A DNA stretch of 64,000 nt. Source: Patescibacteria group bacterium. Lineage in GTDB: Bacteria > Patescibacteriota > Minisyncoccia > UBA6257 > GWB1-50-10. Below, piece after piece: positions 4,462 through 63,214 of this stretch. Each line of letters starts with the position of its first letter. Position 1 is the stretch's first letter. The notes under the pieces were generated by a model. That model saw only the letters and a list, made by a program, of their open reading frames with translations, was not told the origin of the DNA and did no database searches. Location: contig JANBVK010000001.1 in NCBI GenBank assembly GCA_024239035.1, positions 235,010 to 299,009 of the forward strand. Reading direction: 5' to 3'. A program made the position numbers and the translations under genes.

Positions 4462-4737
4462 ATGAAAAGTGATATTCACCCACAATATTACCCGAAGGCT
4501 AAAGTAAGCTGCGCCTGCGGAAACAAATTTACGGTTGGAGCCACCAAGTCGGAGATCAAAGTTGAGATCTGCAGCAAGTGCCACCCTTTCTATACCGGCT
4601 CACAAAAGCTTATTGACACTACTGGAAGAGTAGAACGGTTTAAAGCAAGGAAGGCGAAGGCTGCCACCAAGAACGAAAAGGCGCGAAAGAAGAGTACGCA
4701 AAAAAGTGCTAAAAAAAATCCGCGTAAATCCGCGTAG
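4462..4737 (+). CDS. rpmE: Ribosomal protein L31 with Lys-rich C-terminal extension
   Basis: [10 protein letters not shown]...CACGN...[10 protein letters not shown] matches the L31 zinc-ribbon signature (CxxC...CxxCHPF). Confidence 0.9.
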
Positions 4738-4767
4738 CTATCCGCGTTTATCCGCTTCTATAAATTT

Positions 4768-5448: not shown

Positions 5449-5490
5449 TTATTTCTGAAACGTTATCCGCCCCTGTGCTATTATATAAAT

Positions 5491-44766: not shown

Positions 44767-45957
44767 TCACTGCGACTCAAGGGTATTCGTAAAGCTTGCG
44801 AAATCGTAACTTACGAACCCCAAGTGCCACGTTCCGTCGCCGGCCAGAGTTGAGAACCAGACTCTCAAGACACCACCGTTCCCGTACACAAAAGATGCCC
44901 TGTAGAGCGACCGCGATGCCCAATCGGCGAAACCCTTCTCTAGAAAAGGTGTCGCGTACGTCTCCCAGACAACGCCGTCAGCACTCCTCGCGAAAAACAA
45001 GTCATTGTCTCCGCAACCAGACCCCGACGGATAGGCAGCATAGATTGCCCAGTACTCCCTTGAAGAGGGAATATAGACAACGTCAATGTGCCATATAACG
45101 TAGCCGGGTTGGTCAAACGCCGTAACCACCGGCTCCGACCAATTAGCTCCCGAGAGTCCCGAACCAAGACCACCCAAGCCGCTCGCCGACCTCATCTTGA
45201 CTTCCGTAGAGGTAGCTCGGCATCCCGACGACCCCGAGTCAACGTACCAAATCTTAGGATAGAGTCCGTCAACAAGAACTAAAGACCTGCTCGCTGCTTG
45301 AGAAACGGCGCTGTGATTCGGTTCCTGAAACGCGATCTGTTCCGAATGCCAATCAATCCCGTCCTCCGAAACCCGCGTTTTGATAACGTTGTTTCCGTCT
45401 CTCACCTCTCGCCAGGTAAGAACGAGACGATCCCTAAAAGAATCGTAGAGTAAGTCCGGGTCGGAGTTGTGAAGAGCGCCCGGCTCGAGAGGAGCAACAG
45501 GGTTCGTTATCCCTTCGGGCTCAAGCCACGTCATCCCATCCTGACTCACTACAATCGAGGGATTTTCAAGTCTGGCGTTCCCATTCGGGTAGGGTGTAAT
45601 CGCCATCCAGTAGTTCCATCCATTCCACCCTAGAGAAAAATGCAGAATGTCGGGATGAACGGTTTGACCCGACCCATCGTACGTCGGTACACTGAGCTCC
45701 GTCGGTTCACCAAGAACCGAAACGGTGAGTTCCATCGGTCCCGTAAGCGGCCCAGGCAGCTCCACCGTGGATGGAGCATGACTGTCCGTGCAGCCGAGAA
45801 GCACACCAACAAGCAACACTATCGATCTATTCATGGTTACATCTCCATGCGCTGAAGTGAATTTGCTAAAGCCAATATAACAGAATCGCGAGTATTTGTC
45901 AAAAGAGCTCAAGAGAGCCGGAGTGAGATTACCACGTCTCTGCCGATTCAACGACAC
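44767..45957 (-). CDS. GC-rich predicted lipoprotein (396 aa), possibly a glycoside-hydrolase-like beta-propeller
   Basis: LLGC lipobox; Trp- and Asp-rich repeats; no confident family. Confidence 0.45.
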   Translation of the reverse strand: MSLNRQRRGNLTPALLSSFDKYSRFCYIGFSKFTSAHGDVTMNRSIVLLVGVLLGCTDSHAPSTVELPGPLTGPMELTVSVLGEPTELSVPTYDGSGQTVHPDILHFSLGWNGWNYWMAITPYPNGNARLENPSIVVSQDGMTWLEPEGITNPVAPLEPGALHNSDPDLLYDSFRDRLVLTWREVRDGNNVIKTRVSEDGIDWHSEQIAFQEPNHSAVSQAASRSLVLVDGLYPKIWYVDSGSSGCRATSTEVKMRSASGLGGLGSGLSGANWSEPVVTAFDQPGYVIWHIDVVYIPSSREYWAIYAAYPSGSGCGDNDLFFARSADGVVWETYATPFLEKGFADWASRSLYRASFVYGNGGVLRVWFSTLAGDGTWHLGFVSYDFASFTNTLESQ

Positions 45958-47165
45958 TGCTGGGTCCTTGTTACCCAGTTACAACCGTAAGCCTGCCAAG
46001 GACAGCCATCAATCATACAATCGCCGGGGTTTGTGTAATAGGTAGCTGATGACCCACACCCAGGAGCTGATCCGCTCCAACCCGTACCGCCTACTCCAAG
46101 CGGAAAACATTCCCCGTTCCCGTTCGGAAAATGTTGGAAAGCTAAAGCGTCTTCTATAAGAGTTGCGAAGAACTTACTATCCTCCTTCCGTGCTTCCGAT
46201 GAGCAATTCTCACACCTTCCACCGGTCTGGGTGTACCTTTTCGTCTGAGAACCGTCGCAATTATAATCAAACGAACCGTCGCCCCGGTGGGTTGTGAAAT
46301 AAGACGACTGCCCCGGTTTTGCATTTGAATTGCTGTCATAGCAATCCGTAGTGTAAGAAGTTAAGACACTTCGACGGCGGCGACCACTTGCTGAACCCGT
46401 ATATTGGGTGGAATTTGCCGGATAGCCGTCACTATCAGAATCAGCCATATAAAGATACGCTTCTCTAAGCTGGCCACTACTTCCAATAACAATTGACCCG
46501 CTGTTAATGGAGACTGAACGCCCCGGGTTCCGTGCGAAAGCAGCATTTAACGTAAGAGTATACGTTTGTATAGTCACGTTTCCATTATCAACTCCGTCTG
46601 TTGAGGAAATAGTGCAATTGGCCGTCGTGGTCCAATTTCCGGAAATAGGAATTCCACATGCGTCCGACCACGCAATGGTTATTGAGTTTTCTCTGTCGGC
46701 TGCGTCTCTCGCAACAAATATGGTGTGGTAAAACGTGTCGTGGGTATCTTTGACCTGCCATTCTCCTTCCCAAGTTTCTTCTCCTGTCATCTCAAGCGGG
46801 ACCGTTGTTGTTCCGTTGTCGGTTTCAATGTTGGCAATAACCGAGTTTATCCCTGCCGGTGATTGAACTACAATTCTGAACTTCTGGATATCACCGACAT
46901 GCACGTCAGGCGGGTCAACGACTCCTTCAAGGAACTTTGGCTGCGCATTTTCGGCGGAGATCACCTGGAATACATACTCTCCTTCAGGTAACGGTCCCCA
47001 TTTTTCTCCTTTCTCATTCACGAATTTCCTATCACTTTGCAAGGCCTGCTCATCAGAGCTGGCTTGTTCCTTATTCCTCTGCGGTTCGTAAAATTGAACA
47101 AGCACACCAATACCTACCACAATCAAAACTGCAAGAATAATTAAAATATTTTTCCTCGTAATCAA
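45948..47165 (-). CDS. GC-rich secreted, Cys-rich protein (405 aa)
   Basis: N-terminal TM/signal, many Cys pairs in the C-terminal third (CENCSS...CDGS...CGSS...CMIDGC). Confidence 0.45.
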   Translation of the reverse strand: MITRKNILIILAVLIVVGIGVLVQFYEPQRNKEQASSDEQALQSDRKFVNEKGEKWGPLPEGEYVFQVISAENAQPKFLEGVVDPPDVHVGDIQKFRIVVQSPAGINSVIANIETDNGTTTVPLEMTGEETWEGEWQVKDTHDTFYHTIFVARDAADRENSITIAWSDACGIPISGNWTTTANCTISSTDGVDNGNVTIQTYTLTLNAAFARNPGRSVSINSGSIVIGSSGQLREAYLYMADSDSDGYPANSTQYTGSASGRRRRSVLTSYTTDCYDSNSNAKPGQSSYFTTHRGDGSFDYNCDGSQTKRYTQTGGRCENCSSEARKEDSKFFATLIEDALAFQHFPNGNGECFPLGVGGTGWSGSAPGCGSSATYYTNPGDCMIDGCPWQAYGCNWVTRTQQCR

Positions 47166-47184: not shown

Positions 47185-47565
47185 TTACTGGTATAAATCG
47201 TGAAGAATGCGGCAGGGTTCCACGATACGCGGGTTTGTAATTTTATAGTAGACGTTTAGTCCTTCACGTCGCGTCTTAACGAGTTTATTGTGACGAAGTA
47301 CTGCAAGGTGCTGAGAAACATTTGCCTTTTTAAGCTTGAGTATCCCGACAAGTTTTTCAACAGGGAGTTCACGCTTACTCAAAATATTCAAAATCTCAAG
47401 GCGCTTTGAATTTGCCATAATCTTATAGATCTCGGCGTTACGGAGGTAGGTTGCTTTTGGAAATGGCGATTTCATAGTTTCGAAACTATGCAATAAGTAT
47501 ATAATAATACGGGCATCCTTCAAGGGGGAGTTATCCACGTCCAACTCGGTGGGAATTATAGACAC
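47185..47565 (-). CDS. ArsR/SmtB-family HTH transcriptional regulator
   Basis: LEILNILSK...EKLVGILKLKKANVSQHLAVLRHNKLV is the ArsR winged-helix signature. Confidence 0.75.
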   Translation of the reverse strand: MSIIPTELDVDNSPLKDARIIIYLLHSFETMKSPFPKATYLRNAEIYKIMANSKRLEILNILSKRELPVEKLVGILKLKKANVSQHLAVLRHNKLVKTRREGLNVYYKITNPRIVEPCRILHDLYQ

Positions 47566-47585: not shown

Positions 47586-48098
47586 GTGGGAGGAAGCGGT
47601 TACCATAAAGTTATGCAACTTAAAACAAAATACCTGAACGGTTTACTTATTTTTCTTATAGTTGTGGCAGTTGTTCTGGGGTACGCTATTTACAGCCAGT
47701 CGCCCGAAAAACCCGAGCTTAAAGCAGAAATATCGTCCTTGACCCCGACCCCCGACGAGTCCGAAGTTTTAAACGTTCCCGACCTTAATGCGTCCACTGA
47801 AGAAAAACAACGTCACTTTGAGCTTGTAGTGCAGGTTGCTAAAACCGCTGAATTCTTGGATATAAGCGATTGCAATCCATCACCGGTAGTAATGAAAATA
47901 AAAAAAGGAGAAACGATAGCTGTCAGAAACAATGACTCAGCCGATCACTCAATTGTGTTTAATTTAGAGAGCATACACCCCATCCCCGCAGGGAGCACAA
48001 AAAATATTACCAACGTCTTTGATAAGGGTCCGGGAGTTTACGGTTATGGGTGCGACGCATCAACCGGTGCTGTCGGTATGTTCTTAGTGACCGAATAG
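47586..48098 (+). CDS. Membrane-anchored plastocyanin-like cupredoxin-domain protein (family X, member 1)
   Basis: TM anchor, then VRNNDSADHSIVFNLESIHPIPAG ... GPGVYGYGCDASTGAVGMFLV, which aligns with plastocyanin [21 protein letters not shown] ... YSFYCSPHQGAGMVGKVTV. His, Cys and Met ligand positions are present; the second His is absent. Confidence 0.6.
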   Translation: MGGSGYHKVMQLKTKYLNGLLIFLIVVAVVLGYAIYSQSPEKPELKAEISSLTPTPDESEVLNVPDLNASTEEKQRHFELVVQVAKTAEFLDISDCNPSPVVMKIKKGETIAVRNNDSADHSIVFNLESIHPIPAGSTKNITNVFDKGPGVYGYGCDASTGAVGMFLVTE

Positions 48099-48117: not shown

Positions 48118-49371
48118 ATGAAATTTATTATCCCCAAAAAACCTCTTCTTTTGGTGCTCCTTGCCTTTCTTATTCTAGATGGCCTACTCTTGGTCTTCTT
48201 ACTTCAAGGAAAAGCGGAAATTCAAATCCCTAAAAACTTATCAGCAGCACTCACAAATTCCTACCCAGAAATAGCCGATCTCAAAGACAAACAACTGTCA
48301 TTTAAAGACCTATCCAACTATTTTAGCGATCTTGCCGAAGAAAAAGATGCAGTGTATGCCTACGAAGTGCTCAAGGTTGCACCAATCCCTCCCGGAATAG
48401 ATATGCATTTAATGGGGCATGTCGTTGGCGACATTCTTTACCGACAACAGGGTGTTCGGGGCATAGGTGTCTGTACCCACGATTTCCGGAACGCCTGTTC
48501 TCACAGCATCGTGGTGGGTCTGCTCCTTGAAGGTGGTGAGGGAGCCATACCCGAAATCACTGAAGCGTGCGGCGAAGCGCCTGGGGGAACCGGCGCCTAC
48601 TCAATGTGCTTTCACGGGCTTGGGCACGGAGTTTTAGCTTACGCCGATTATGATTTAGAAAAAGCCATTGAGCTTTGTAAAAAAACCGGCAGCGCAGAAT
48701 CCCCTCGCAGAGAACAAGTGGAATGCGTTGGTGGCACAATCATGGAGATAATTGGTGGTGGCTTCCACAACCCGAAACTATGGGCCGAGCAATCCAAAAA
48801 ATATCTTAGCGCTGATGATCCTCTCCACCCGTGCAGTAGCGACTTCATACCTGATATCGCCCGCCCTCAATGTTACATCTATCTTACTCCTCATCTCTTT
48901 AAAGTGGTTGGTGGAAGTCTTGGTAGTCCTACCCCGGAAGACTTTGAAAAAGCATTCCTTCTTTGTGAAAAAATTCCCGCCTCTGACACCGCTAGCCGCC
49001 ACACGTGCTACGGCGGTTTTGGAAAAGAATTTATAGTGCTCGCAAAAAACCGCGACATACGAAACATTGATAAGATGACAGACGAGGAGCTCGCAAAGGT
49101 GTATGAGTGGTGTCTTCTAGCGAAAAACCAGAACGGAATATTAGCGTGCGTCAACAGCGCCGCGGCCTCACTGTATTGGGGTGGTGAAAACGATCGCGGA
49201 ATTGTCATTAAATTCTGCGGATCATTGACAGAACCGAATATCCAAGCCTCCTGCTTTGCAAACATTATTGGAGGAGTTTCTTACTACATCAACGATCCTA
49301 CCTACAGACGCGGATTTTGTGAGGAGTTACCACCTACCTACCATGAAGACTGCCTTACCAGATTACTATAG
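48118..49371 (+). CDS. Secreted Cys/His-rich repeat protein, paralog B1 (417 aa)
   Basis: Signal/TM; repeated C-x-H-G-[LIV]-G-H-G and C-x-x-G-G motifs (MCFHGLGHGV; ECVGGTIMEI; TCYGGFGKEF); about 14 conserved Cys. Confidence 0.7.
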   Translation: MKFIIPKKPLLLVLLAFLILDGLLLVFLLQGKAEIQIPKNLSAALTNSYPEIADLKDKQLSFKDLSNYFSDLAEEKDAVYAYEVLKVAPIPPGIDMHLMGHVVGDILYRQQGVRGIGVCTHDFRNACSHSIVVGLLLEGGEGAIPEITEACGEAPGGTGAYSMCFHGLGHGVLAYADYDLEKAIELCKKTGSAESPRREQVECVGGTIMEIIGGGFHNPKLWAEQSKKYLSADDPLHPCSSDFIPDIARPQCYIYLTPHLFKVVGGSLGSPTPEDFEKAFLLCEKIPASDTASRHTCYGGFGKEFIVLAKNRDIRNIDKMTDEELAKVYEWCLLAKNQNGILACVNSAAASLYWGGENDRGIVIKFCGSLTEPNIQASCFANIIGGVSYYINDPTYRRGFCEELPPTYHEDCLTRLL

Positions 49372-49380
49372 CGAGATGTT

Positions 49381-50469
49381 ATGGACGTTATATTAAAAAA
49401 AATTAAAACAGCGCCAAAAGCTCCGTTTTTCCTCGGGGTTCTGGTCCTCGTCGCACTTATTGGGGGTGGCGGAACGTTCCTAAAAAATAAAAGTGGCAAC
49501 ACACCAGACCCGAATCTAACAAGCGCGATAAGCTCCGGTTTACGCACCACCGATCCAATAAAAGCTCGCAACTATTGGGCAGAACGCATTGATGCCGTAG
49601 GCGCTAAGCGTGCGTATGAAGAATTTAAAGAGACTTACTACAAGGAACACTTCGGTATCCAACATACTCTCGCCCACGTTATGGGGGAGCTGCTCTACGA
49701 AAAAGAAAGTGTTCAAGGGCTTACGGTATGCGACGCCACTTTCGCCTTTGGTTGCTATCACAGTTTCTTCGGGAGAGTATTGAGCGAACACGGAATCGCA
49801 ATCATACCCGAACTCGATAAGGCATGTGTCGAAAAGTTTGGACCCCTAGGAACAGGCTGCCAGCACGGTATCGGCCATGGATTAAGAGAATTTATGGGTA
49901 GTGAGAAACTAGTGGACGCTCTTGAGGCGTGCATCTTGACCACCCAACTAAAAGATTTGTTTGGTTGCACATCAGGCATCTTTATGGAAAACAACGTTCC
50001 TATAGTCATTAGCGCAGACAAACCGGCGTATACTGAACCACGAACCCTGAATCCAAATAATCCTTACGAACCGTGCAACACAATAGTACCGGAACAGTTC
50101 AGAAATTCGTGCTACTACGAAATGGCACAGTGGTGGAATCAGGTATTTAATCGCAACTGGGAAAAAATGGGGAGATTGTGCGAGGAGGTCGGCAACGAAG
50201 AATACACAAAGTCATGCTATTTTGGTATCGGCAATATTACCGCTCCCTCAAGCCAGTATGAAGTTGAGGCGACGATCAATAAGTGCAAACAAATGCCCTC
50301 CCGAGAAGCGGAGGTAACCTGCAGATCAGGAGCGTCGTGGAGTTTCTTTGCCGAACCGATTGCAAGAGACAAATCACCGGAGATATGTAAAGGGCTTGGA
50401 GCTGAAATAGAACAGAAGTGCGCGAAGGAATCCGACCTAATCGGCAACGGTGAAAAATTTATTCAATAA
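49381..50469 (+). CDS. Secreted Cys/His-rich repeat protein, paralog B2 (362 aa)
   Basis: Collinear with B1 (HTLAHVMGELLY; GCQHGIGHGL; NPYEPCNTIVPEQFRNSCYYE). Confidence 0.7.
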   Translation: MDVILKKIKTAPKAPFFLGVLVLVALIGGGGTFLKNKSGNTPDPNLTSAISSGLRTTDPIKARNYWAERIDAVGAKRAYEEFKETYYKEHFGIQHTLAHVMGELLYEKESVQGLTVCDATFAFGCYHSFFGRVLSEHGIAIIPELDKACVEKFGPLGTGCQHGIGHGLREFMGSEKLVDALEACILTTQLKDLFGCTSGIFMENNVPIVISADKPAYTEPRTLNPNNPYEPCNTIVPEQFRNSCYYEMAQWWNQVFNRNWEKMGRLCEEVGNEEYTKSCYFGIGNITAPSSQYEVEATINKCKQMPSREAEVTCRSGASWSFFAEPIARDKSPEICKGLGAEIEQKCAKESDLIGNGEKFIQ

Positions 50470-50478
50470 GTTTCTATT

Positions 50479-51690
50479 ATGGTGAAAAAAATTTTTATCG
50501 CGGCTCTGTTTGTAATAGTTCTTGCAGAAACTGCCGTACTCATAAAAGATAAACTACCACGCCTTACCGCGTCGCTCTTTCAATCCAGACAAGTTTCCTT
50601 TGAAGAGTATGCCGATCGCGTGGTTGAAAAATGTAAAGACGCGGGATATCGCCCGAGCTGCTACGATAAGGAGATTCCAGAACTTATGGATGCAATCTCA
50701 ATGGAGGATGCCTTTGAGGTTACAAGAATTGTCCAAGATCAAGATAGATCATACTACTATTGTCACGTACTCGGGCATGAATTAAGTGCTCGAGAGGTGC
50801 GCAAAGACCCGAGCAGTTGGAAGGATGTTGTTACACAATGCCCAAGCGGTATGTGCTCAAACGGCTGCCTCCACGGCGGGTTCCAAGAACGCTTCCGAGA
50901 AGGAGCCTTTACTGAAACCGAAGTGCGAGAGATCACCAAAGAACTCACCAACCTTTGTGAAGAAAAGCCTGCGTGGCGCCCCACCGGCCTTGAACAAGCT
51001 TCCTGCTACCATGCACTGGGACATCTCACGATGTATATCACGAGCGCCGAACTAAACAAATCATCAGAAATTTGCGAAGAGATTGCAGTAAAGCCGGATG
51101 GTAGAAATTACTCGCAACTTTGCTTTGACGGAGTATTTATGCAAATCTTCCAACCGCTCGAACCCGAGGACTTTGCGCTCGTTGAAGGAAAACAACCCAC
51201 AAAAGAGGAGGTACCTCTATTTTGCGGAAACTTCACAGGCAAAAAGAGAGCATCGTGTCTCAGCGAAAGTTGGCCGCTATTTTTTAAGGAGCTCAAAAAT
51301 CCCGAAAACTTAGTACGGTTTTGCTCAATGACCGAGGAGAGCGAACGGACAAGGTGTTATAACGTTATCTTCTATGTAATGACCGCCCAACTTGGCTTCA
51401 ATGTAGAGACACTACAAAATTATTGCGCGGGCTTGCCCAAGGAACGGCAGGGGTTGTGTTTCGCAAACGCTGCCTCTCGCATGATTGAAACTGACTACAG
51501 AAACATTGATAAGTCGGTACGCTTGTGCACCACCGCAGAAGATTACGATGCAGACGAAGAGTGTTTTGCAGAACTCTTACAGTATTCGACTTACAATTTC
51601 CATGCCGGATCAGAAGCGTTTTTCCGTCTCTGTAACAGTTTACCAGAGCCATGGAGCGAGAAATGCCTAAGTAAAAACACGGCCTCTTGA
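50479..51690 (+). CDS. Secreted Cys/His-rich repeat protein, paralog C1 (403 aa), with HExxH-like CHVLGHELS and CYHALGHL motifs
   Basis: Close paralog of 59901-61196 (for example FEEYADRVVEKCKDAGYRPSCYDKEIPELMD matches LEEHADRMIEKCKKAGSNQRCYDEEIPHLMD). Confidence 0.7.
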   Translation: MVKKIFIAALFVIVLAETAVLIKDKLPRLTASLFQSRQVSFEEYADRVVEKCKDAGYRPSCYDKEIPELMDAISMEDAFEVTRIVQDQDRSYYYCHVLGHELSAREVRKDPSSWKDVVTQCPSGMCSNGCLHGGFQERFREGAFTETEVREITKELTNLCEEKPAWRPTGLEQASCYHALGHLTMYITSAELNKSSEICEEIAVKPDGRNYSQLCFDGVFMQIFQPLEPEDFALVEGKQPTKEEVPLFCGNFTGKKRASCLSESWPLFFKELKNPENLVRFCSMTEESERTRCYNVIFYVMTAQLGFNVETLQNYCAGLPKERQGLCFANAASRMIETDYRNIDKSVRLCTTAEDYDADEECFAELLQYSTYNFHAGSEAFFRLCNSLPEPWSEKCLSKNTAS

Positions 51691-52169
51691 TAACGGTGTC
51701 GCATAACGTCTTCAAAATATTCCTCGTTGCTCTCTTCCTCCTCTATTTTTTAGGGAGTTTCTACACCTCCGGTACTCTTGAGGGAGAAGCGTATCCGTTC
51801 TTTTCCTGGTTTGTATTCACAAAAGTACCACCTAAATTTCAAGAAGGATACACAATAAGAATTCTCAAGTACGGAGACAAGCAATTACATTCGCCTGTCT
51901 CTTTTGAAGACGCCTACGATGTGTACATGAACAGAGGTATAGCCTCACCCCAATACAACTACATGATCAGGGCTTTGGGAACAAGCGTTGAAAATAAAGA
52001 CTTGAGAGAAATAAAACGACACCGCCACACACTAGAAGCAACCTTCCTGTCCCAGCCAGTTGTGTACGAGGTAGTAAAAATTAAATTTAGCACGCTTGAG
52101 CGCTGGAGAACAGGACAAGTACTCGAATCAAAAAGTATCGCCGTCTTCAATGTTCCAAAAGAACTATGA
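51687..52169 (+). CDS. Membrane-anchored hypothetical protein (160 aa), translationally coupled to the following membrane protein
   Basis: ATGA overlaps at both ends (51687/51690 and 52166/52169); N-terminal TM. Confidence 0.5.
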   Translation: MITVSHNVFKIFLVALFLLYFLGSFYTSGTLEGEAYPFFSWFVFTKVPPKFQEGYTIRILKYGDKQLHSPVSFEDAYDVYMNRGIASPQYNYMIRALGTSVENKDLREIKRHRHTLEATFLSQPVVYEVVKIKFSTLERWRTGQVLESKSIAVFNVPKEL

Positions 52170-53122
52170 AGTTGAACCAATCAATCAAAAATTTACGCGC
52201 GCTCGTCTCCTCTTTCCCGATGATTACATCTTTTGCCACAGGAAAACGGTCGCTCGAGAAAGCAAAAACCATTACCCGCTTTCTCTACTATTTCTTGGCG
52301 TTCCGATCTTTGTCCATACTGTTCGGTCGCGGGCAGTATGCTTCACAGGAAGGAAACTTCTCACCCATCTGGTCAATTAAATGGGCAGAGCTTCTAAATT
52401 TCCCTGACGTAATCAATATCATTGTTTTTTTCTTCCTCATCAGCGCGTTTGTGGGAGCACTTTTTAATCAGCTCCGCGTAGGTCGCGTTATAGCTTTCTT
52501 GGGAGTATTCCAACTGCATGCGTTCTTGAGTTCATTCATACAGGTTGACCATCAGTGGTACCCGTGGCTCTACGTCACGTTTTTGTTAATTTTTCTACCA
52601 GATGCTCCTGCACAAGAATACTCCTTTGAAAAACGCAAGAAGTTTTTATTAGTTTTTTTTGGTGCCCAAGCTGCTATATTCACGATCTATTCAATGGCAG
52701 GTTTTGGCAAGACGTACGGTGCAATCGAGCAGTTTCTGCAAGGAGGGGTCCACGCATTCGCACCCGAGGCTCTCGCGCTTCATATCGCACATTGGCTAGT
52801 GGCAAATAATTCAACAAGTCTGGTAGGATCTTTTATAATTGCGCACCCCTTAGTGGGATGGCCCTTTTTTGTCGGCAGTATTTACCTACTACTCTTCTCG
52901 TTGTGGGCTGTTTTCAAACCGTCTCTCCATAGATTGTGGGCATTTGGATTACTGCTCTACCATATAGGAGTGTATGCGGCCATGAACATAAGTTTCTTGG
53001 GATCCCCGCTGCTTTTACTGCTTTTGTTCTTCGACTCGCCATTTAAAAAACGGGGCGTAAAGTGGAAAGAAATAATTCTAGATTTACCACTCTTCGGGTG
53101 GCTATTGCGCCGCCTTAATTGA
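52166..53122 (+). CDS. Polytopic membrane protein (318 aa), HTTM-like
   Basis: 8-9 predicted TM helices, Trp/His-rich loops; embedded in the Cys-rich paralog locus. Confidence 0.4.
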   Translation: MKLNQSIKNLRALVSSFPMITSFATGKRSLEKAKTITRFLYYFLAFRSLSILFGRGQYASQEGNFSPIWSIKWAELLNFPDVINIIVFFFLISAFVGALFNQLRVGRVIAFLGVFQLHAFLSSFIQVDHQWYPWLYVTFLLIFLPDAPAQEYSFEKRKKFLLVFFGAQAAIFTIYSMAGFGKTYGAIEQFLQGGVHAFAPEALALHIAHWLVANNSTSLVGSFIIAHPLVGWPFFVGSIYLLLFSLWAVFKPSLHRLWAFGLLLYHIGVYAAMNISFLGSPLLLLLLFFDSPFKKRGVKWKEIILDLPLFGWLLRRLN

Positions 53123-53268: not shown

Positions 53269-53421
53269 ATGTTTGAAACAATAAAGCAAATCCTTACTTT
53301 AACTTTAAAATCAAGGAAGATCTGGTTAATTCCTCTCCTTCTTTTACTAGTCATTATCGCCCTACTTGTTATCGGCGCATATGTCTCCCCTGTTCCTATA
53401 TTTATCTACCCAATAATATGA
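53269..53421 (+). CDS. Micro membrane protein (50 aa), coupled (ATGA) to the next small ORF
   Basis: My own reading: MFETIKQILTLTLKSRKIWLIPLLLLLVIIALLVIGAYVSPVPIFIYPII; below the ORF-track size cutoff. Confidence 0.4.
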   Translation: MFETIKQILTLTLKSRKIWLIPLLLLLVIIALLVIGAYVSPVPIFIYPII

Positions 53422-53615
53422 AGAGAATTGTCCGTGTAATGAACAATTTCTTCATTTCCGTTGTACTCACAATTTTCTATTTCACCGCAGTGGGGTTGTC
53501 ATTTATTATCTTACGATTGTTCACAAAGTCCAAACCGGAAAAACATAAAAATTCTTATTGGCAAAGTATAAACAAAGAAAACCCAAATAGAAACTATTTT
53601 GAATCAGCTTACTGA
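53418..53615 (+). CDS. Small membrane protein (65 aa) immediately upstream of the carbamoyltransferase
   Basis: Single TM (FFISVVLTIFYFTAVGLSFIILRLF); 2-nt spacing to the next gene. Confidence 0.4.
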   Translation: MKRIVRVMNNFFISVVLTIFYFTAVGLSFIILRLFTKSKPEKHKNSYWQSINKENPNRNYFESAY

Positions 53616-53617
53616 AA

Positions 53618-55330
53618 ATGTATATTCTGGGAATCTCCGCATTCTATCATGACAGCGCCGCAGTACTTATCGAAGACGGACATATACGTTCCGCTGCTGA
53701 AGAAGAACGCTTCACTCGCGTGAAACATGATAACAGTTTTCCCTTTAATGCGATCGAGTCCTGCCTGGATAACGCAGACATCTCCATTAATGAAGTGGAC
53801 TACACTGCTTACTACGAAAAGCCACTCCTTAAGTTCGAAAGGATTCTCGACACATTTGTCCGCACGTACCCTCTTTCTCTGAAGCCGTTCTTGAGAGGAG
53901 TCCCTGAGTGGCTCACCTCGAAAATAAAGGTAGAGGGGATTATTCGAAAAAAGCTGGGATACAAGGGAAAAACCTTTTTTATCCCTCACCATCTCTCTCA
54001 CGCCGCCGCAACGTTTTACCCCTCCCTTTTTAAAGAATCAGCAATCCTCACTGTGGACGGGATAGGAGAATACCAAACAACAGGTTTGTGGACAGGTGAA
54101 GGTGTTACCATCACTCCGCTCAAGGCAATTAATTTCCCGCACTCTCTGGGGCTCCTCTACTCTACTCTTACCTCATTTCTGGGATTTAGAGTCAACGAAG
54201 ACGAATATAAAGTTATGGGGCTCGCGGCTTATGGAAAACCTAGTTATGCAGATCAAGTCTATAAGACAGTAAACGTAAAAAACAACGGAAGTTTCAACCT
54301 AAACATGAAATTCTTCTCCTTTAGAGAACGATTTCAAATGTGGACTAAAGAATTCGAGAAACTGTTCGGAAAACCGCGATTACCCGATGAACCGATCACC
54401 GAACGGGAAAAGGATATAGCAGCAAGCATCCAGAAGGTGACCGAGGATATTTACCTTGGTATGCTCAACCACCTCTATAAACTTACAAAGTGTCCAAATT
54501 TATGCATAAGCGGCGGCGTCGCGTTAAACGCCCTCGCAAACGGAAAAATATACGAAATAACTCCCTTTAAGAGGGTATATATCTTGGGTGCCGCCGGCGA
54601 CAGCGGTGCTACACTGGGGGCAGCGCTTTTTACACATCACGGTATTCTCAACTTCAAACAACGATGTTCAATAAATAATTTATGTCTCGGTTCCTCCTAC
54701 GATAATGAGGATGTAGAACAGATACTCAAAAAATATAACGTATACTATAGAAAATTCGGCAACGAAACCAACCTCGTTAAACATACCGCCTCACTCCTCG
54801 CCGACCACAACGTAATCGGTTGGTTCCAAGGGAGAATGGAATTCGGCCCCCGGGCACTCGGATCACGATCCATCCTTGCTTATCCCAGCCCCGCCTCTAT
54901 GAAAGAAAAAGTTAATACAATAAAAGTGCGGGAGCAATTCAGGCCTTTCGCATGCTCAATTCTGGAAGAAAAAATTCATGAATACTTCAACGTTCCAGGA
55001 CCCCGCCACGCCTCACCTTTTATGAACTTTTGTTTCCGGATAAAGAGAGTAAAAACGGCAGAGTTAGCTGCCGTAGTTCACAAAGATGGAACCTGCAGAA
55101 TTCAGACAGTAACTAAAGAAAACGGACGGTACTATAAGCTAATTAGAAAATTCTACGAGTTGACCGGCACTCCCTGCATCTTAAATACGAGTTTTAACAC
55201 AAAAGGAGAACCCATTGTAGAGAGTCCCGAAGACGCTATTAAAGACTTCTTAAAAACTGAACTCGATTACTTGGTTATCAACAACTTTATCGTTTCAAAA
55301 CCCGGGTCACACGGCATAAGATTCTTCTGA
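53618..55330 (+). CDS. Carbamoyltransferase (NodU/CmcH family)
   Basis: N-terminus MYILGISAFYHDSAAVLIEDGHI... and the HxxH/Kae1-like fold pattern, C-terminal YrdC-like region; 570 aa. Confidence 0.8.
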   Translation: MYILGISAFYHDSAAVLIEDGHIRSAAEEERFTRVKHDNSFPFNAIESCLDNADISINEVDYTAYYEKPLLKFERILDTFVRTYPLSLKPFLRGVPEWLTSKIKVEGIIRKKLGYKGKTFFIPHHLSHAAATFYPSLFKESAILTVDGIGEYQTTGLWTGEGVTITPLKAINFPHSLGLLYSTLTSFLGFRVNEDEYKVMGLAAYGKPSYADQVYKTVNVKNNGSFNLNMKFFSFRERFQMWTKEFEKLFGKPRLPDEPITEREKDIAASIQKVTEDIYLGMLNHLYKLTKCPNLCISGGVALNALANGKIYEITPFKRVYILGAAGDSGATLGAALFTHHGILNFKQRCSINNLCLGSSYDNEDVEQILKKYNVYYRKFGNETNLVKHTASLLADHNVIGWFQGRMEFGPRALGSRSILAYPSPASMKEKVNTIKVREQFRPFACSILEEKIHEYFNVPGPRHASPFMNFCFRIKRVKTAELAAVVHKDGTCRIQTVTKENGRYYKLIRKFYELTGTPCILNTSFNTKGEPIVESPEDAIKDFLKTELDYLVINNFIVSKPGSHGIRFF

Positions 55331-56337
55331 GTAACGTAGCGTAAAAGCTCGTACGCAATCATCTTATGTCCCTTGGTATTGGGATGCCAGTCGGGCAATA
55401 CTCCGTCGGGCCTGAGACGCAACTCGCTTTCATAGAAATATGTGTTGGCACGAGAGGCAACGAAACGTCCTATAATAGGTCTGTACTTATCTTCAATCTT
55501 GCTCTCATGAATCAAGCTAAATACAACAAGCGGGCCTTGATAGTACTCATTAATCAAACTTAGTGCTTCCTCCTGATATTGGGCAACTCCCTCTTCTCCG
55601 TACTCCTTAAATTGATCTCTAACTGCCCTCTGCCATATTCCAAACTCAAGTTCATCGGGCGGTTTGGTAAATTCTCTCCATGAACCCCGACGGCCATCAC
55701 TGTCTCCTCCCTCTGCACTCGCCTGTTCTGCAAGCCGCTTTGTTCTCGGTTTAAGAAATTCATTGATTTCTTGAAAATCGTTTTCAATCAAGTGCCACAG
55801 CACAAGGTCGGGGCTGTACTTCATTCCACGCATCCTAAACCGCTCCACGGCGTATCGAATGTCATAGCTCGGCACACCTAAATTTACCACTTCAAACTTC
55901 ATAATAGTGTCGCAGTCAAGCTCATTGTTTAGTAAATCTTCCAGAACCTCTGAGTAATTATTCTCTGTGTTCATAAACATGCCGTATGTCCAAGAATCAC
56001 CTAAAGCAATAACCCTAAACGTACCCTCGGGTTTTTCAGTAGTATAATTGAAACGCTCGTTTAAAGTATCAGCGTTAATGGTTATCTCGGGAGTATACGA
56101 GAGCCAAGTAGGAATAAACACTTGTCCCTGGTAGTCGGGGTTTAGCTCGTAAAAATGTTGAAGATCTGAGTCCTCTGGAAAACTGAGACTTTCTCTCGGA
56201 ATGAGTGCAATACTTGCCGTGTATCGGTTTTCATACACATTGATACCGATAAGCACAATAACGATAAGTTGGACAACCACTAAACCTATAACCAATGAAT
56301 TTTTTTTTCTAGTCTTTATCATAAAGTTGATTCGCAA
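55267..56337 (-). CDS. SGNH/GDSL-family hydrolase, membrane-anchored
   Basis: N-terminal TM; block I VIALGDSWTYG (GDS), block V DWHPN-like (D-x-x-H); 356 aa. Confidence 0.7.
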   Translation of the reverse strand: MRINFMIKTRKKNSLVIGLVVVQLIVIVLIGINVYENRYTASIALIPRESLSFPEDSDLQHFYELNPDYQGQVFIPTWLSYTPEITINADTLNERFNYTTEKPEGTFRVIALGDSWTYGMFMNTENNYSEVLEDLLNNELDCDTIMKFEVVNLGVPSYDIRYAVERFRMRGMKYSPDLVLWHLIENDFQEINEFLKPRTKRLAEQASAEGGDSDGRRGSWREFTKPPDELEFGIWQRAVRDQFKEYGEEGVAQYQEEALSLINEYYQGPLVVFSLIHESKIEDKYRPIIGRFVASRANTYFYESELRLRPDGVLPDWHPNTKGHKMIAYELLRYVTQKNLMPCDPGFETIKLLITK

Positions 56338-56387: not shown

Positions 56388-56930
56388 ATGATCAGGCGCT
56401 CCAATGTCATTTTAACGGTACTAATTATATCGCTCTTCCTGGGAGCACTATTCTCTCCCACAATTCCTGTCCGCGCCCACGGAGTAGGAGAATCATTAGA
56501 AAAAGTTGTAGGAGAATATCTCGTCGACATCGGCTATGACGCTTTCGAACTCCGCGCTAAAGAATCAGTTCGCTTCGACTTTTCCTTATGGACAAGTGAC
56601 CAAAGCGAAGAAATACCCTTTACTGATATCTGGTTGAGAATTAGTCAAAACAACAAAGCTGTTCTTGCTGGAGGAATTCAAAACCCCCGTTTTGGCAAAG
56701 CGGGAGTCACCTATGCATTCCCCGAAAAAGGCGAGTACACACTCTTTGTACGATTCCAGAATGGAGATGAGTCACTTGTTGAAACATCATTTCCGCTTGC
56801 AGTTGAAGAGGGCAACGAAAGCGCGAGCAACACCTCTCCGGTTTCAAAAGAGCTGCTCATCGGCGTAGGTGTAGGGCTTGTTATCGGTTCACTAATCACT
56901 TTTCTCCTGCGACGCGTACGCCATGGGTAA
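56388..56930 (+). CDS. Secreted protein with C-terminal TM anchor; mature N-terminus predicted to begin with His (VRA|HGVGES)
   Basis: Signal peptide, beta-rich middle, C-terminal LIGVGVGLVIGSLITFLL anchor; 180 aa. Confidence 0.55.
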   Translation: MIRRSNVILTVLIISLFLGALFSPTIPVRAHGVGESLEKVVGEYLVDIGYDAFELRAKESVRFDFSLWTSDQSEEIPFTDIWLRISQNNKAVLAGGIQNPRFGKAGVTYAFPEKGEYTLFVRFQNGDESLVETSFPLAVEEGNESASNTSPVSKELLIGVGVGLVIGSLITFLLRRVRHG

Positions 56931-58425
56931 AAAAGCGCTAATCTTCTTACCACTCCTCGTTCTTACTATTGGCGGTTCCATTACTTACCGTGAGCTCCGA
57001 GTATCGGACACAGAGCCCGCACGGATGGCGAGCGAATACGTCGTAGAACTTCACGAAGACGGTTTCCACCCAGAGAAAATTACCATCCAGAAAGGTGCGG
57101 TGGTGACTTTCATAACCACAAGAAACAAAGATTTCTGGCCAGCATCAAACCTCCATCCCACCCACATTATCTACAGAGAGTTCGATCCCAAAAAAGCAAT
57201 CGCGCCTGACAATTCCTGGAACTTCACGTTTAATAAAACCGGTGAGTGGAGATATCACGACCACACTGCCCCCTATTTTACAGGAACAATAATTGTCGAA
57301 GAGCACGACCACGACAAAACCCACGTTCATCATCTCGACACCGCAGAAAACATTGATTGCAGTAAATTGGATGCTCTCAACGACTACGAGAAAGAAAAAT
57401 GCTGGGATAAAGTCCTGGGCGAGGCGCTCAGGGAAAAAGGGGTAGAAGGATCTCTCGAGGCGTTTAGACAACTCTACACCACCCAACCTAATTTTGCCCA
57501 AAGTGGATGTCACTGGTATGCGCACCGTATCGGTGAAGAAGCCTACGGATACTATAGAGGCGGCGAAGATCTCGATCTTCCGCAAGAAGTGAGCTACTGC
57601 GGCTATGGTTTTGTACACGGTTTCTTAGAGCACGGTTTCAGGGAAGAAAGAAATCCAACCGAGGCAAAGAGGCTGTGCAACTACCTCGACACCCAACTAT
57701 CAGATATCCTCCCAAGAATTCGATTAAATTGTTTCCACGCAATAGGTCACGGGTTCATAGATGATCCACCAAATCCAAGAATATGGGGAAATTCTCAAGC
57801 TATAATAGGGCCGGCGCTAAAAATCTGTGAAAGCGTTTCCGACGTACCAATCGAAGTCAAAGAATGTTTTGATGGGGCATACAACACTCTAGTAATCTTT
57901 ATGCAAACGAACCAGTATGGGTTGTCATTCGATAAAAAAGATCCACTCGGTTTCTGTCATAATGAACCTGACCGTTACCAACTCTCATGTTATTATGAGT
58001 TTGCCCAAGTGCTCGACTCCGCAGGTGACCGGGATCTCGCGACAATTGCAAAATTCGTTGAAGGCATTCCCGAAGATACGCTTGCAGGTATGATTATCAA
58101 CACCGCAGCTGCAGGTGTGGTGCAGGGAGATATCACAAACGATGACTTCACAAACTATATCCTTGAGTGCCGAAAAACAGGAGAACGCCTGCGCCTGCAG
58201 TGCATACGAGGCGTAGTAGGGGGACTTCTCGCCCACGGTGAACCGGGAAAAGAGTACATCAAAGCTCTGAAGTTATGTGATGCCGGTCTACTCCTTGAAG
58301 ACGAGCACAAAGCGTGCTTCCATAACACTCTAAATGGAATCAAGACTATCTATCCCCGCGAGAAAGTAGAACAAATTTGCAAAACAATTGATGAGAAATA
58401 CCAAAGCTACTGCACCTATCAATAA
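56923..58425 (+). CDS. Secreted cupredoxin-like domain plus Cys/His-rich repeat protein, paralog A1 (500 aa)
   Basis: N-terminal domain VVELHEDGFHPEKITIQKGAVVTFITTRNKDFWPASNLHPTH...GEWRYHDHTAPYFTGTIIV, then the shared Cys/His repeat region (NCFHAIGHGF). Confidence 0.7.
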   Translation: MGKKALIFLPLLVLTIGGSITYRELRVSDTEPARMASEYVVELHEDGFHPEKITIQKGAVVTFITTRNKDFWPASNLHPTHIIYREFDPKKAIAPDNSWNFTFNKTGEWRYHDHTAPYFTGTIIVEEHDHDKTHVHHLDTAENIDCSKLDALNDYEKEKCWDKVLGEALREKGVEGSLEAFRQLYTTQPNFAQSGCHWYAHRIGEEAYGYYRGGEDLDLPQEVSYCGYGFVHGFLEHGFREERNPTEAKRLCNYLDTQLSDILPRIRLNCFHAIGHGFIDDPPNPRIWGNSQAIIGPALKICESVSDVPIEVKECFDGAYNTLVIFMQTNQYGLSFDKKDPLGFCHNEPDRYQLSCYYEFAQVLDSAGDRDLATIAKFVEGIPEDTLAGMIINTAAAGVVQGDITNDDFTNYILECRKTGERLRLQCIRGVVGGLLAHGEPGKEYIKALKLCDAGLLLEDEHKACFHNTLNGIKTIYPREKVEQICKTIDEKYQSYCTYQ

Positions 58426-58428
58426 AAA

Positions 58429-59904
58429 ATGAGCAACCAGACAAAAAGGCTATCCCTATTTATTTTGATCGTACTCGTTGCAAGCGCTGTTGGTTTCCTG
58501 CTCTATAAAAGAGCACAACTCGGTGCAAGTCTCCTTCCTGCCGCAGGATCAGAACACGTCGTCGAGCTTCGAGAAGACGGATTTCATCCCGAAGAACTTA
58601 CCATACATAAAGGGGATACCGTCACCTTCGTTACCAAAAACAGTAATTATTTCTGGCCTGCCTCCAATCTCCACCCCACCCACACTATTTACCCCGAATT
58701 CGATCCGGAGGAACCAATTGCGCCCGACGAACGCTGGGGTTTTCGTTTTAAAAAACCGGGAGAATGGAAATATCACGACCATCTCGCTCCCTACTTCACG
58801 GGAAAAATAACGGTTATAGATGGCTCTCAAGCGCGTGCCGCCCAAAGTAAATGCAAAGACGACAAAAACTCGTTCGAGTGCTGGCAAGAAATTCTCCTCA
58901 CCACGCTCGATAAAAAGGGGGTTGAGGCAACCTTCGACCGCTTGGCCGAACTCTATGTAAGTGAATCTTATTTTCCACTAGCCTGCCACTATCTTACTCA
59001 TAATATCGGTATTGCTGCTTATAAACACTACCTCAAAGACAAAGATTCGGTCTTAACCCCAAAGGCTGCGTACTGCGCAAACGGTTTCTACCACGGATTT
59101 ATGGAAGCGTTCCTTACCGTAACGAAAGATCCCGAAAAAGCAAAAGCATTTTGCATATACGTGGATAGTAAGCTTACCAAAGACGCACCGGATGCGGCGC
59201 TTCAGTGCTATCACGGGGTCGGCCACGGCGCAATTGAAACGACGCTTGCGAGGTGGACAAGACCCGACGGGGGGGAAGATGAGATGGTGAAACCCGCGCT
59301 CGAGATATGCGAGGCTATCTCTGATGCACCGGAAGAACTCTACCGCTGCACTTCAGGCGTGTTCAACACCATTGCAAATTTCTACACCAGCGGTGGGTTT
59401 GGACTCACCGCGAATATGGAAAATCCTCTTTGGCTCTGCGATAAACAACCCGACGAGTACAAACTAAGCTGCTATGGCAACATGAACACAGTACTTCGAT
59501 GGATCGCCGGAGAGGATTTTCAAAAAGCTGCCCGGTTTATCGAGCAAATCCCCGACAGAGCATATACTGCCCCTGCCCTACGCTACCTTGCAAACATGTA
59601 CACACTGTTTCTTGCTCGAGGTAACTACACGGGGGCGGTAGAGAACTGCCGCGCGCTTGATAAGTCGTTGCATGTCTCTTGTATTGAGGGATTCGCGCAC
59701 GGATTCCTTGAGCAGGGAGTGCCGGGAGAAGAGTACATCGAAGCATTCGCGTTCTGTAGAGCAGATGCGCTCTCTGAAGAAGAGCGTGAGATATGCTTCA
59801 AGTATGCATTAAATCTTGATGGTTGGTATGATAAAGAGAAAGTAAAAGAAATTTGCAAAACAGTGGAGGAGGACTACAGACAATATTGCATCATTAAAAA
59901 GTGA
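58429..59904 (+). CDS. Secreted cupredoxin-like domain plus Cys/His-rich repeat protein, paralog A2 (491 aa)
   Basis: VVELREDGFHPEELTIHKGDTVTFVTKNSNYFWPASNLHPTH...GEWKYHDHLAPYFTGKITV; QCYHGVGHGA. Confidence 0.7.
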   Translation: MSNQTKRLSLFILIVLVASAVGFLLYKRAQLGASLLPAAGSEHVVELREDGFHPEELTIHKGDTVTFVTKNSNYFWPASNLHPTHTIYPEFDPEEPIAPDERWGFRFKKPGEWKYHDHLAPYFTGKITVIDGSQARAAQSKCKDDKNSFECWQEILLTTLDKKGVEATFDRLAELYVSESYFPLACHYLTHNIGIAAYKHYLKDKDSVLTPKAAYCANGFYHGFMEAFLTVTKDPEKAKAFCIYVDSKLTKDAPDAALQCYHGVGHGAIETTLARWTRPDGGEDEMVKPALEICEAISDAPEELYRCTSGVFNTIANFYTSGGFGLTANMENPLWLCDKQPDEYKLSCYGNMNTVLRWIAGEDFQKAARFIEQIPDRAYTAPALRYLANMYTLFLARGNYTGAVENCRALDKSLHVSCIEGFAHGFLEQGVPGEEYIEAFAFCRADALSEEEREICFKYALNLDGWYDKEKVKEICKTVEEDYRQYCIIKK

Positions 59905-61196: not shown

Positions 61197-61233
61197 AAAT
61201 TAAGCAGTTCGTCAAAGTATAATAATCACAACA

Positions 61234-62749: not shown

Positions 62750-63214
62750 ATGCAGGGTAAGGTTGTGATTACTATTTTCGTGCTATTAGCTGTTGGGGTA
62801 GGATATACCCTCTGGAGAAACGGAACCCCTTCATGGCTCTCCTTTAGTACCTTAAGTGATAAAGAGGCATTATTTATCAGCCTCCCTACAAGCACCTCAA
62901 CACAGGAAGAGGTAAGACGCCACCGTGAACTCGCGGGAAAACTTGCCGAAGACGGCAACGAAATAAATATCGCCGGATGTATACCCGACCCACCCGTGCT
63001 CAGAGTAAAAAGAGGTGATAATATAACTTTTATAAACAACTCTCAGGAAGAAGTTCGCTTGCAAATCGGTAACGTTGGCATCTTTAGTGTTCAACTGGAA
63101 GATACGCTTGTTGAGAGGGCAGAATTCGGTACAACAGGCGAAGCCCTAGTCGCTTATCTGTGCCACAGCGGTGATTCATCAGAGAGAGATTTTGGATTTA
63201 TTTTAATACAATAA
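62750..63214 (+). CDS. Membrane-anchored cupredoxin-like protein (family X, member 2)
   Basis: TM, then IPDPPVLRVKRGDNITFINNSQ...ALVAYLCHSGDSS...FGFILI, a cupredoxin-like beta pattern with Cys-His. Confidence 0.5.
   Translation: MQGKVVITIFVLLAVGVGYTLWRNGTPSWLSFSTLSDKEALFISLPTSTSTQEEVRRHRELAGKLAEDGNEINIAGCIPDPPVLRVKRGDNITFINNSQEEVRLQIGNVGIFSVQLEDTLVERAEFGTTGEALVAYLCHSGDSSERDFGFILIQ

Follow-up and report, generated by a model that had tools for sequence, protein, structure and literature searches.

Cupredoxins are a textbook example of a protein fold that has been retuned for varied copper sites, among them the type-1 (T1), CuA and red copper centres and the sites of CupA, PCuAC and CopC/YcnI; the fold itself is already known, and copper-less or re-ligated cupredoxins have precedents. 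Patescibacteria, the candidate phyla radiation (CPR), have tiny genomes rich in genes for membrane and surface proteins that lack annotation; these proteins presumably mediate an episymbiotic lifestyle. One described system that combines metal and thiol chemistry in a membrane-tethered protein is ScoI, which binds copper through a Cys pair and a distant His and whose Cys pair also forms a disulfide (PMC6669012). Here we describe a small gene, A (47586-48098, forward strand), and its family. The gene lies in a 64,000-nucleotide stretch of a Patescibacteria metagenome-assembled genome (MAG), which we refer to as the window and whose upstream Pfam-matched open reading frames (ORFs) include FtsA, FtsZ, HisRS and signal peptidase.

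The product of A is a membrane-tethered protein with a predicted cupredoxin domain and a rebuilt copper site. Its family, which comprises more than 1,000 clusters, keeps the His and the Cys of the blue-copper site, gains a loop Cys and an Asp, and drops the remainder; it would be either a new member of the series of retuned cupredoxins or a clear case of a metal ligand turned disulfide partner. A is not a blue-copper electron carrier. We lean, tentatively, towards a Sco-like extracytoplasmic thiol/metal accessory factor for the α-solenoid proteins that are encoded beside it. As far as we have searched, there is no earlier description of the C…N…H…CD signature of the family, of its size, of its lack of a model in curated libraries, or of its constant pairing, in CPR bacteria, with genes of an α-solenoid family that is itself undescribed. 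An earlier reading of the window from its letters alone (hereafter the sequence-only reading) had picked out A and two further ORFs, N and O, as plastocyanin-like, and all three ORFs exist as it described them. They are set out below; for all residue positions in A, we use the numbering of its 161-residue form, which starts at ATG 47613.

47586-48098, forward strand: A, small membrane-tethered cupredoxin-like protein; 170 residues from GTG 47586 or 161 residues from ATG 47613
47622-47696, forward strand: N-terminal transmembrane (TM) helix of A, residues 4-28, followed by a low-confidence linker rich in Pro, Glu, Ser and Thr
47844-48095, forward strand: predicted cupredoxin-fold domain of A, residues 78-161, seven strands
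47871-47873, forward strand: codon of Cys87 of A, in the β1-β2 loop; unmatched by any type-1 copper ligand
47946-47948, forward strand: codon of His112 of A, aligned to the N-terminal His ligand of type-1 sites
48051-48056, forward strand: codons of Cys147-Asp148 of A, at the tip of the β7-β8 hairpin; Cys147 aligned to the type-1 Cys ligand
62750-63214, forward strand: N, degenerate paralog; Cys at residues 77 and 138, Val at the His position and His at the Asp position
63245-63739, forward strand: O, degenerate paralog; Cys at residues 85 and 144, Ile at the His position and Asn at the Asp position

Fold and membrane topology of the small protein

The product of 47613-48098 is 100% identical to the NCBI protein KJI72_01475, which is annotated as a hypothetical protein of a Patescibacteria group bacterium. 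The start of A is ambiguous, as the longest ORF begins at GTG 47586 and the NCBI entry at ATG 47613; both codons precede the TM helix. A GGAGG-like motif (47589-47593) is found 19 nt upstream of ATG 47613, within the GTG-start ORF.

We found that sequence profiles relate A to cupredoxins below their thresholds only. A phmmer search of the PDB with A returned cupredoxins in 11 of 11 matches, yet the E-values were only 0.076-1.4. The Pfam model Cupredoxin_1 (PF13473) scored 18.4-18.6 bits, below its gathering threshold of 27; Copper-bind (PF00127) scored 12.5 bits against a cutoff of 21.2, and TIGR02656 17.5 bits against 87.85. Cupredoxin_1 is the sole Pfam family with recurrent weak matches to the small family, reaching E <= 0.01 in only seven of 73 members (best 4.2e-5). 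With a profile of these 73 members, E-values fell only to 0.008 for the Nitrosopumilus purple cupredoxin (5fc9) and to 0.019 for plastocyanin, both matches being in the expected register. Both plastocyanin alignments which the sequence-only reading had proposed for A were recovered independently by HMMER: '...ikkgetiavrnndsadhsivfnlesihpipag' of A aligns with plastocyanin 2plt, and 'pgvygygcdastga' with 'PGTYTYYCEPHRGA' of 1pcs.

Because the profile matches are sub-threshold, the fold was assigned from structure. An AlphaFold2 (AF2) model of A, made from an alignment of five sequences, has block-mean predicted local distance difference test (pLDDT) values of 79-94 over residues 51-161; it comprises the TM helix (4-28), a disordered linker (pLDDT < 50 at residues 27-43), a further helix (62-75) and seven strands. 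Foldseek found 219 matches to this model in the PDB at E <= 1e-3. The best 50 of the 219 are exclusively cupredoxins and include 5fc9, plastocyanins, amicyanin, CuA domains and CupA, with 4hcf, a Cupredoxin_1 protein of B. anthracis, as the best match (E = 1.3e-6, TM-score 0.67-0.73 normalised to the target). Furthermore, hhalign aligned the small-domain profile with the Cupredoxin_1 domains that are fused to the neighbouring proteins J, K and M over 74 columns and in the same register (P = 0.0011). On the model, the domain of A is a cupredoxin fold, descended from the plastocyanin/Cupredoxin_1 lineage. The profile search and the structural model which the sequence-only reading had named as checks both support that fold, and profile support, however weak, was present.

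A and O are paralogs, as had been claimed (36% identity over 157 residues, E = 4e-22). N is related to A at 25% identity (E = 1e-12) and matches the hidden Markov model (HMM) of the family at 3.8e-39. The three proteins have a common plan, in which an N-terminal TM helix is followed by a linker, a helix and a domain of ~85 residues. The N-terminal tether that had been described for them is a property of the family, 150 of 154 members having an N-terminal hydrophobic helix. Lys and Arg together number 2.9 in the N-terminal flank of this helix versus 2.1 in the C-terminal flank, and Asp and Glu 0.46 versus 1.34; an N-in/C-out orientation is thereby favoured. The flank charges, together with lipoprotein homologs (see below), point to an outward orientation of the domain, and A is probably a single-pass membrane protein with its C-terminal domain outside the cell.

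This topology bears on one alternative, namely that A is a cytoplasm-facing Cu(I) chaperone of the CupA kind, which would be TM-anchored, hold Cu(I) between two Cys and pass it to an exporter. A TM anchor, a cupredoxin fold and two essential Cys are the hallmarks of CupA (PMC5646241), the CupA structure 4f2e is among the structural matches to A, and a gene of a metalloregulator family is adjacent. However, the flank charges and the lipoprotein homologs point outward, the positions of Cys and His differ between the two proteins, A has no Met motif, and the Pfam scan of 29 window ORFs revealed neither a CopA P-type ATPase nor CopY. We consider a CupA-like role extremely unlikely.

The former copper site

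Conservation was counted over 154-171 non-identical members of the family. Cys87 and Cys147 are both invariant (170/170 members), and exactly two Cys are present in 141 of 154 members. Cys87, which is not mentioned in the sequence-only reading, is part of a D-I-[ST]-x-C motif in the β1-β2 loop; by our own alignment, we take its position to be that of plastocyanin Leu12, which borders the copper site. Asn106 and Gly155 are likewise invariant across the family, and Pro91, Gly141, Phe136 and Tyr143 nearly so. His112 occurs in 73% of the family and Asp or Glu at position 148 in ~84%. Among the three paralogs of the window, A is the 'complete' copy, in which C87, H112, C147 and D148 are all present.

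The sequence-only reading had described an incomplete set of type-1 ligands, and we found that this incompleteness holds across the family and is not peculiar to the source genome. For A, it had listed His, Cys and Met as retained and the second His as missing. His112 and Cys147 are indeed present, with Ser at Cys+3 in place of the second His; Met156 is also present, but it is not the equivalent of the axial Met. O keeps only the Cys of the type-1 set, as had been stated, with Ile at the His position and Asn after the Cys, and has a five-residue insertion after the Cys; the C-H pair noted in N corresponds to 'LCH'. The second type-1 His, expected two to four residues after the Cys, is absent family-wide (Cys+3 is Ser in 70, Val in 15 and Ile in 12 of 154 members), and no axial Met or Gln is conserved across the family where the last strand begins. 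Gly155 aligns with what we take to be the Gly two residues after Met92 in plastocyanin numbering; anchored on Gly155, the equivalent of Met92 is residue 153, which is mostly Ala. Position 156 itself, that of the supposed Met ligand, is Leu in 39, Met in 38, Phe in 31 and Ile in 26 of 154 members.

In the AF2 model, strands 141-147 and 150-160 make up a tight β7-β8 hairpin, with Cys147-Asp148-Ala149 as its turn, such that a two-residue turn is found where the type-1 ligand loop would stand. Direct-coupling analysis (DCA) of the family (effective number of sequences, Neff, 168) agrees with the hairpin, as G146-S150 and V142-M156 are coupled; M156 is also coupled to V52 and V55 of the N-terminal extension. 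Residue 156 is hydrophobic and variable, has couplings indicative of packing, and lies four to five residues down β8 from the hairpin tip; for these reasons we do not regard it as a ligand.

These results are pertinent to the alternative that A is a perturbed type-1 protein, or a red or green mononuclear copper protein, that transfers electrons through a site made up of His112, Cys147, Met156 and either Asp148 or Cys87. His112 and Cys147 do align with type-1 ligands, the closest relatives in the PDB are redox cupredoxins, and a Met is found in A nine residues after the Cys. Yet the Met position is the variable, core-packed one described above, well down its strand; Cys+3 is Ser or aliphatic; 27% of members have no His; no redox partner (NirK, oxidase or cytochrome) is found among the window ORFs scanned; and A falls far short of the cutoffs of the plastocyanin models in Pfam and NCBIfam. 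An electron-transfer site of this type is very unlikely.

The strongest DCA coupling in the domain is H112-D148, with a score of 4.40 (the next two pairs score 4.13 and 3.43); this co-evolving pair is not mentioned in the sequence-only reading. Both residues are present in 124 members and neither in 24, while 21 have the Asp only and two the His only (P = 8e-15 by Fisher's test), one of these last two being a truncated ORF. A neighbour-joining tree indicates at least 20 independent losses of His112. D/E148 has been lost in 11 of 20 His-less clades, and where the His is kept there is one genuine exception among 126 members. With at least 20 losses of the His, and the Asp lost in 11 of these clades, the association of His and Asp is a replicated one and not the outcome of a single inherited event. 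The coupled pairs D86-D108, D108-H112, P89-V154 and S90-I114 place the segment of Cys87 over the region of His112 and the hairpin tip. From the DCA couplings and the cupredoxin topology, we infer that Cys87, His112, Cys147 and Asp148 would cluster at the former type-1 copper position.

A co-evolving His-Asp pair that adjoins an invariant Cys might also suggest an enzyme, in which Cys147, His112 and Asp148 form a triad on a cupredoxin scaffold and act as a protease, transpeptidase or acyl-transferase that processes or anchors surface proteins. The small genes are tightly linked to putative substrates, and 'complete' and 'dead' paralogs coexist, as is common in enzyme/pseudoenzyme pairs. However, the Asp and the Cys are neighbours in sequence, as is seldom the case in triads; a triad leaves the second invariant Cys unexplained; there are loci with no His-bearing copy at all; and A is similar to no hydrolase model in Pfam or NCBIfam. 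We know of no cupredoxin-fold hydrolase, and a triad enzyme appears highly improbable to us.

Gene linkage and proposed role

A word-indexed homolog search with A found three proteins only. When 1.84 billion cluster representatives were searched exhaustively with a profile, at least 1,174 proteins matched at E <= 1e-3, of which 801 reached E <= 1e-10. Of the 150 matches listed, nearly all are 135-222 residues long and match the profile from end to end; two longer members (P0065, of 288 residues, and P0121) match it in two stretches. The family is covered by no Pfam or NCBIfam model. Its members are mostly from CPR bacteria, the named sources being Patescibacteria, Saccharibacteria and Yanofskybacteria, together with one MAG labelled Gammaproteobacteria. 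In a Candidatus Poribacteria subfamily and its close relatives, a lipoprotein lipobox (…VVAGC) replaces the TM helix and two tandem domains are sometimes present; the Poribacteria homologs keep the C..N..H..CD signature. Homologs outside the CPR were observed at locus L025 (10001-10870, Candidatus Poribacteria-like) and as proteins P0273, P0278, P0281, P0284 and P0287. In the literature on CPR cupredoxins we found canonical NirK-associated plastocyanin-like proteins only and not the small family, and we found nothing relevant in that on CPR Cys-rich families.

We assessed the linkage of the small family to the big, Cys/His-rich family by running HMMs of both over all ORFs of the window and of 24 loci (given with the prefix L); the related-locus search, made with a 28-sequence alignment subset, gave 6 and 15 loci, its recall being limited by the exact-pattern step. 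In addition to A, N and O, the relevant genes of the window are as follows.

47185-47565, reverse strand: ArsR/SmtB-family metalloregulator (NF033788, 79.7 bits), divergent from A
48118-51690, forward strand: B, C and D, membrane-anchored Cys/His-rich α-solenoid family, first sub-array
51687-53122, forward strand: E (51687-52169) and F (52166-53122)
53618-55330, forward strand: carbamoyltransferase (PF02543/PF16861)
56388-56930, forward strand: I, with a signal peptide ending in AxA before His, an Ig/filamin-like domain and a C-terminal TM anchor
56923-62724, forward strand: J, K, L and M, α-solenoid family as in B-C-D, second sub-array

The small genes do bracket the array, as the sequence-only reading had it: A is 19 bp upstream of B-C-D, and N and O are 25 and 30 bp downstream of J-K-L-M. 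From 47586 onward, intergenic gaps inside each forward-strand block are -8 to 37 bp; an SGNH hydrolase gene, on the minus strand, lies within the region from A to O. A tie between the small proteins and the adjacent Cys/His-rich proteins had also been suggested, with co-occurrence as a check, and we found adjacency in every CPR locus with enough flank: the small gene abuts one to seven genes of the big family, in the same orientation. The two are separated by less than ~160 bp or overlap in the window and in 9/9 genome/ENA loci, and they are also adjacent in every metagenome locus of at least 3.6 kb. Most commonly, the small gene is immediately upstream of one to four big genes (L004-L009, L017, L019, L020, L022); alternatively, it is downstream of one to seven (L001, L003, L015, L016, L018), and both orders are present in the window. 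Two or three small paralogs per locus are common, and the copies at L006, L008 and L009 are all His-less. We infer a partner relationship between the small proteins and the α-solenoid proteins. The conserved operon unit, comprising a small cupredoxin-like gene and one to seven α-solenoid genes, offers a concrete, testable handle on one CPR surface system.

The big family was examined mainly through D. The AF2 model of D is all-α, with 24 helices and a pLDDT of 93; its Foldseek matches are generic HEAT, TPR and importin solenoids only (E >= 9.5e-3, TM-score <= 0.32), and no relative of the α-solenoid core emerged when the PDB was searched with the sequences of D and J. At E <= 1e-5, we found 881 homologs of D, each annotated as 'hypothetical'; among those listed, all but one are without a precomputed Pfam domain, the exception being a 585-residue protein with PF00535. 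The D-type sequences sampled from Parcubacteria and Microgenomates are 53-67% identical. The Cys/His-rich family (B, C, D and J-M) models as a new α-solenoid and would be a large undescribed family in its own right. Proteins of the D type have Cys pairs 11 residues apart with a period of ~34 residues (249/260, 282/293, 316/327, 350/362 and 385/396) and C-x-H-x-x-G-H-type motifs in their N-terminal half. J, K, M and their relatives have, in addition, a fused N-terminal Cupredoxin_1 domain (J 57013-57297, K 58474-58815, M 61366-61632), which in J and K passes the Pfam threshold (30.8 and 31.8 bits). The motif WPAS[ND]xHPxH…W.[YF]HDH of this domain is invariant in eight sequences (from the window, L004, L006 and L008); Cys-free and His-rich, it resembles a mononuclear metal site of a separate kind, built on the fold that the stand-alone small proteins also have.

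In the Sco-like reading, the type-1 ligand loop has collapsed to a tight β-hairpin, with the C-terminal His and the axial Met gone family-wide. The former copper site would now be formed by an invariant pair, the β1-β2 loop residue Cys87 and the former ligand Cys147, which in about three quarters of members the co-evolving His112-Asp148 would join. A would thus carry a membrane-tethered, extracytoplasmic dithiol/disulfide site with a His nearby. When reduced, this site may bind a metal as Cys2-His, copper being the most plausible ion, and the Asp would orient the His; when oxidised, it would close to a disulfide. A would then serve as a dedicated assembly, metallation or thiol-redox partner of the adjacent Cys/His-rich α-solenoid proteins, and N and O, which keep the Cys pair only, would be degenerate adaptor copies. 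The fusion of a cupredoxin domain to the α-solenoid in J, K and M supports this reading, as does a copper-flavoured context, in which the mature product of gene I would have an N-terminal His and an ArsR/SmtB regulator adjoins A.

Several points weigh against this proposal. For two invariant, buried Cys in an oxidising environment outside the cytoplasm, a structural disulfide is the simplest explanation, and the proximity of Cys87 to Cys147 rests on topology and on a DCA that is noisy at this Neff. About 27% of members are without His112, including N, O and all copies at the three His-less loci, so a Cys2-His site is not a universal mechanism. The Poribacteria locus has no α-solenoid neighbour and is flanked by genes for β-propeller and unannotated membrane proteins. 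The ArsR gene did not recur at the other loci examined and for that reason is given little weight as evidence of metal regulation. Neither a copper transporter nor a cuproenzyme was found among the 29 window ORFs scanned, from 31866 onward. Finally, little copper use is known among CPR bacteria, most of which are fermenters.

It is nearly as likely that the domain is a copper-free structural or adaptor module. A permanent Cys87-Cys147 disulfide would staple the N-terminal loop to the β7-β8 hairpin, no metal would be bound, the protein would be a membrane-proximal docking or scaffold subunit for the α-solenoids, and His112-Asp148 would be a surface salt bridge or a binding hot-spot. Membrane-tethered cupredoxins that are copper-less have precedents in quinol oxidase subunit II (CyoA) and in the early-nodulin-like phytocyanins of plants. 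The Cys pair stays invariant in members that have lost His and Asp, and most members have these two Cys and no other; the domain is probably extracytoplasmic; and the periodic C-x11-C pairs of the neighbouring α-solenoids, every ~34 residues, look like disulfide staples and thus indicate an oxidising folding environment. The loci without a His-bearing copy (L006, L008 and L009) are also in keeping with such a role. However, a structural disulfide leaves unexplained that H112-D148 is the strongest coupling and that the Asp is lost in 11 of 20 His-less clades; moreover, the His-Asp pair is located exactly at the ancestral metal site, and the C..N..H..CD signature is kept in a distant phylum.

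Returning to the Sco-like reading, a broader version of it strikes us as doubtful. In this version, a Cys(β1-β2 loop)-His-Cys centre with a second-sphere Asp would be an unrecognised metal/redox centre on a type-1 scaffold, and A would be an extracytoplasmic factor dedicated to the metallation or thiol-redox maturation of His-rich, disulfide-stapled α-solenoid surface proteins, which would form a so far undescribed system across the CPR; the whole cluster, including the Ig-like protein with an N-terminal His and the His-rich fused cupredoxins, would be a copper/metal-handling apparatus of ultra-small host-dependent bacteria.

Some of the remaining genes recur at related loci. Gene I encodes 180 residues and has related copies at L015 (8590-9138), L017 (4730-5440) and L018 (4018-4728), in each case directly after small genes. 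As its signal peptide ends in AxA before a His, the mature protein would start with this conserved His. In its N-terminal-His copper site and C-terminal anchor, the architecture of gene I is like that of B. subtilis YcnI (PMC12154828); gene I is a candidate histidine-brace (YcnI/CopC-like) copper binder by analogy, and no HMM supports this assignment. E (160 residues, a single TM helix) and F (318 residues, a Cys-free polytopic membrane protein) overlap and recur beside α-solenoid arrays in L004 (9009-10468) and L006 (3-251). We considered an SdpA/SdpB-like pair, as the sizes fit and the ArsR gene weakly resembles SdpR; this was rejected, there being no match in Pfam or NCBIfam.

A 65-residue TM peptide gene, the carbamoyltransferase gene (67% identical) and a convergent SGNH/GDSL hydrolase gene accompany the array both in the window (53418-56337) and in L015 (11100-13997). 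The recurrence of this carbamoyltransferase/SGNH set hints at a glycan- or lipid-modification module linked to surface proteins. Just upstream of the ArsR gene, 45948-47165 (minus strand) encodes a 405-residue TM-anchored protein with a very Cys-rich C-terminal third; it recurs near arrays in L006 (5925-7487) and L015 (9724-10644), and no family match to it was found. The listed start of the ArsR ORF (47185-47565) is probably too far upstream, as the helix-turn-helix begins near residue 44. At L001, a 599-residue protein (4180-5979) adjoins the small genes, and its C-terminal half is made up of degenerate 'YGQ[SAG]TYY/AY' repeats.

Comparison with known copper and thiol systems

The domain of A has the same fold and strand order as the type-1 copper proteins (plastocyanin, amicyanin and 5fc9). 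It can be aligned with them residue by residue in the N-x-D-S-x-x-H segment and in the G-x-Y-x-Y-x-C strand, both the N-terminal His and the Cys of the type-1 ligand set are matched, and the loop from Cys to Gly is equal in length in A and 5fc9. A differs from the type-1 proteins in that the C-terminal His and the conserved axial Met are missing and a tight hairpin stands for the ligand loop; in turn, its family has gained an invariant β1-β2 loop Cys and an Asp that follows the ligand Cys. The binuclear H...C-x-x-x-C-x-x-x-H-x-x-M motif of CuA domains is absent from A, which has one C-terminal Cys and no His or Met in register. The best structural match is to 4hcf/4hcg, the Cu- or Zn-bound Cupredoxin_1 protein of B. 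anthracis, but 4hcf has Phe at the position of Cys87. The fused Cupredoxin_1 domains of J, K and M match the small domain over its full length by hhalign, but have a Cys-free, His-rich motif (HPxH...HDH) instead.

CupA of Streptococcus pneumoniae (4f2e), the 18th Foldseek match of A (E = 2.1e-5), is likewise a TM-anchored cupredoxin with two essential Cys, one of which is at the old type-1 Cys position (PMC5646241). The other Cys of CupA replaces the N-terminal His, whereas A keeps this His and has its extra Cys in the β1-β2 loop; CupA has a C-x-M-x-M loop, whereas no Met motif follows Cys147 in A; and CupA faces the cytoplasm and is encoded in a cop operon with CopA and CopY.

With Sco/SenC proteins, A would share a single-helix tether, a domain outside the cell, a Cys pair with a distant His, the option of a disulfide between these Cys, and an extracytoplasmic client with which it functions (PMC6669012). 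The two differ in that Sco has a thioredoxin fold with a CxxxC motif, whereas A is a predicted cupredoxin, has its Cys residues 60 positions apart and has no cytochrome oxidase client; the resemblance of A to Sco, as we propose it, is one of functional analogy and not of homology.

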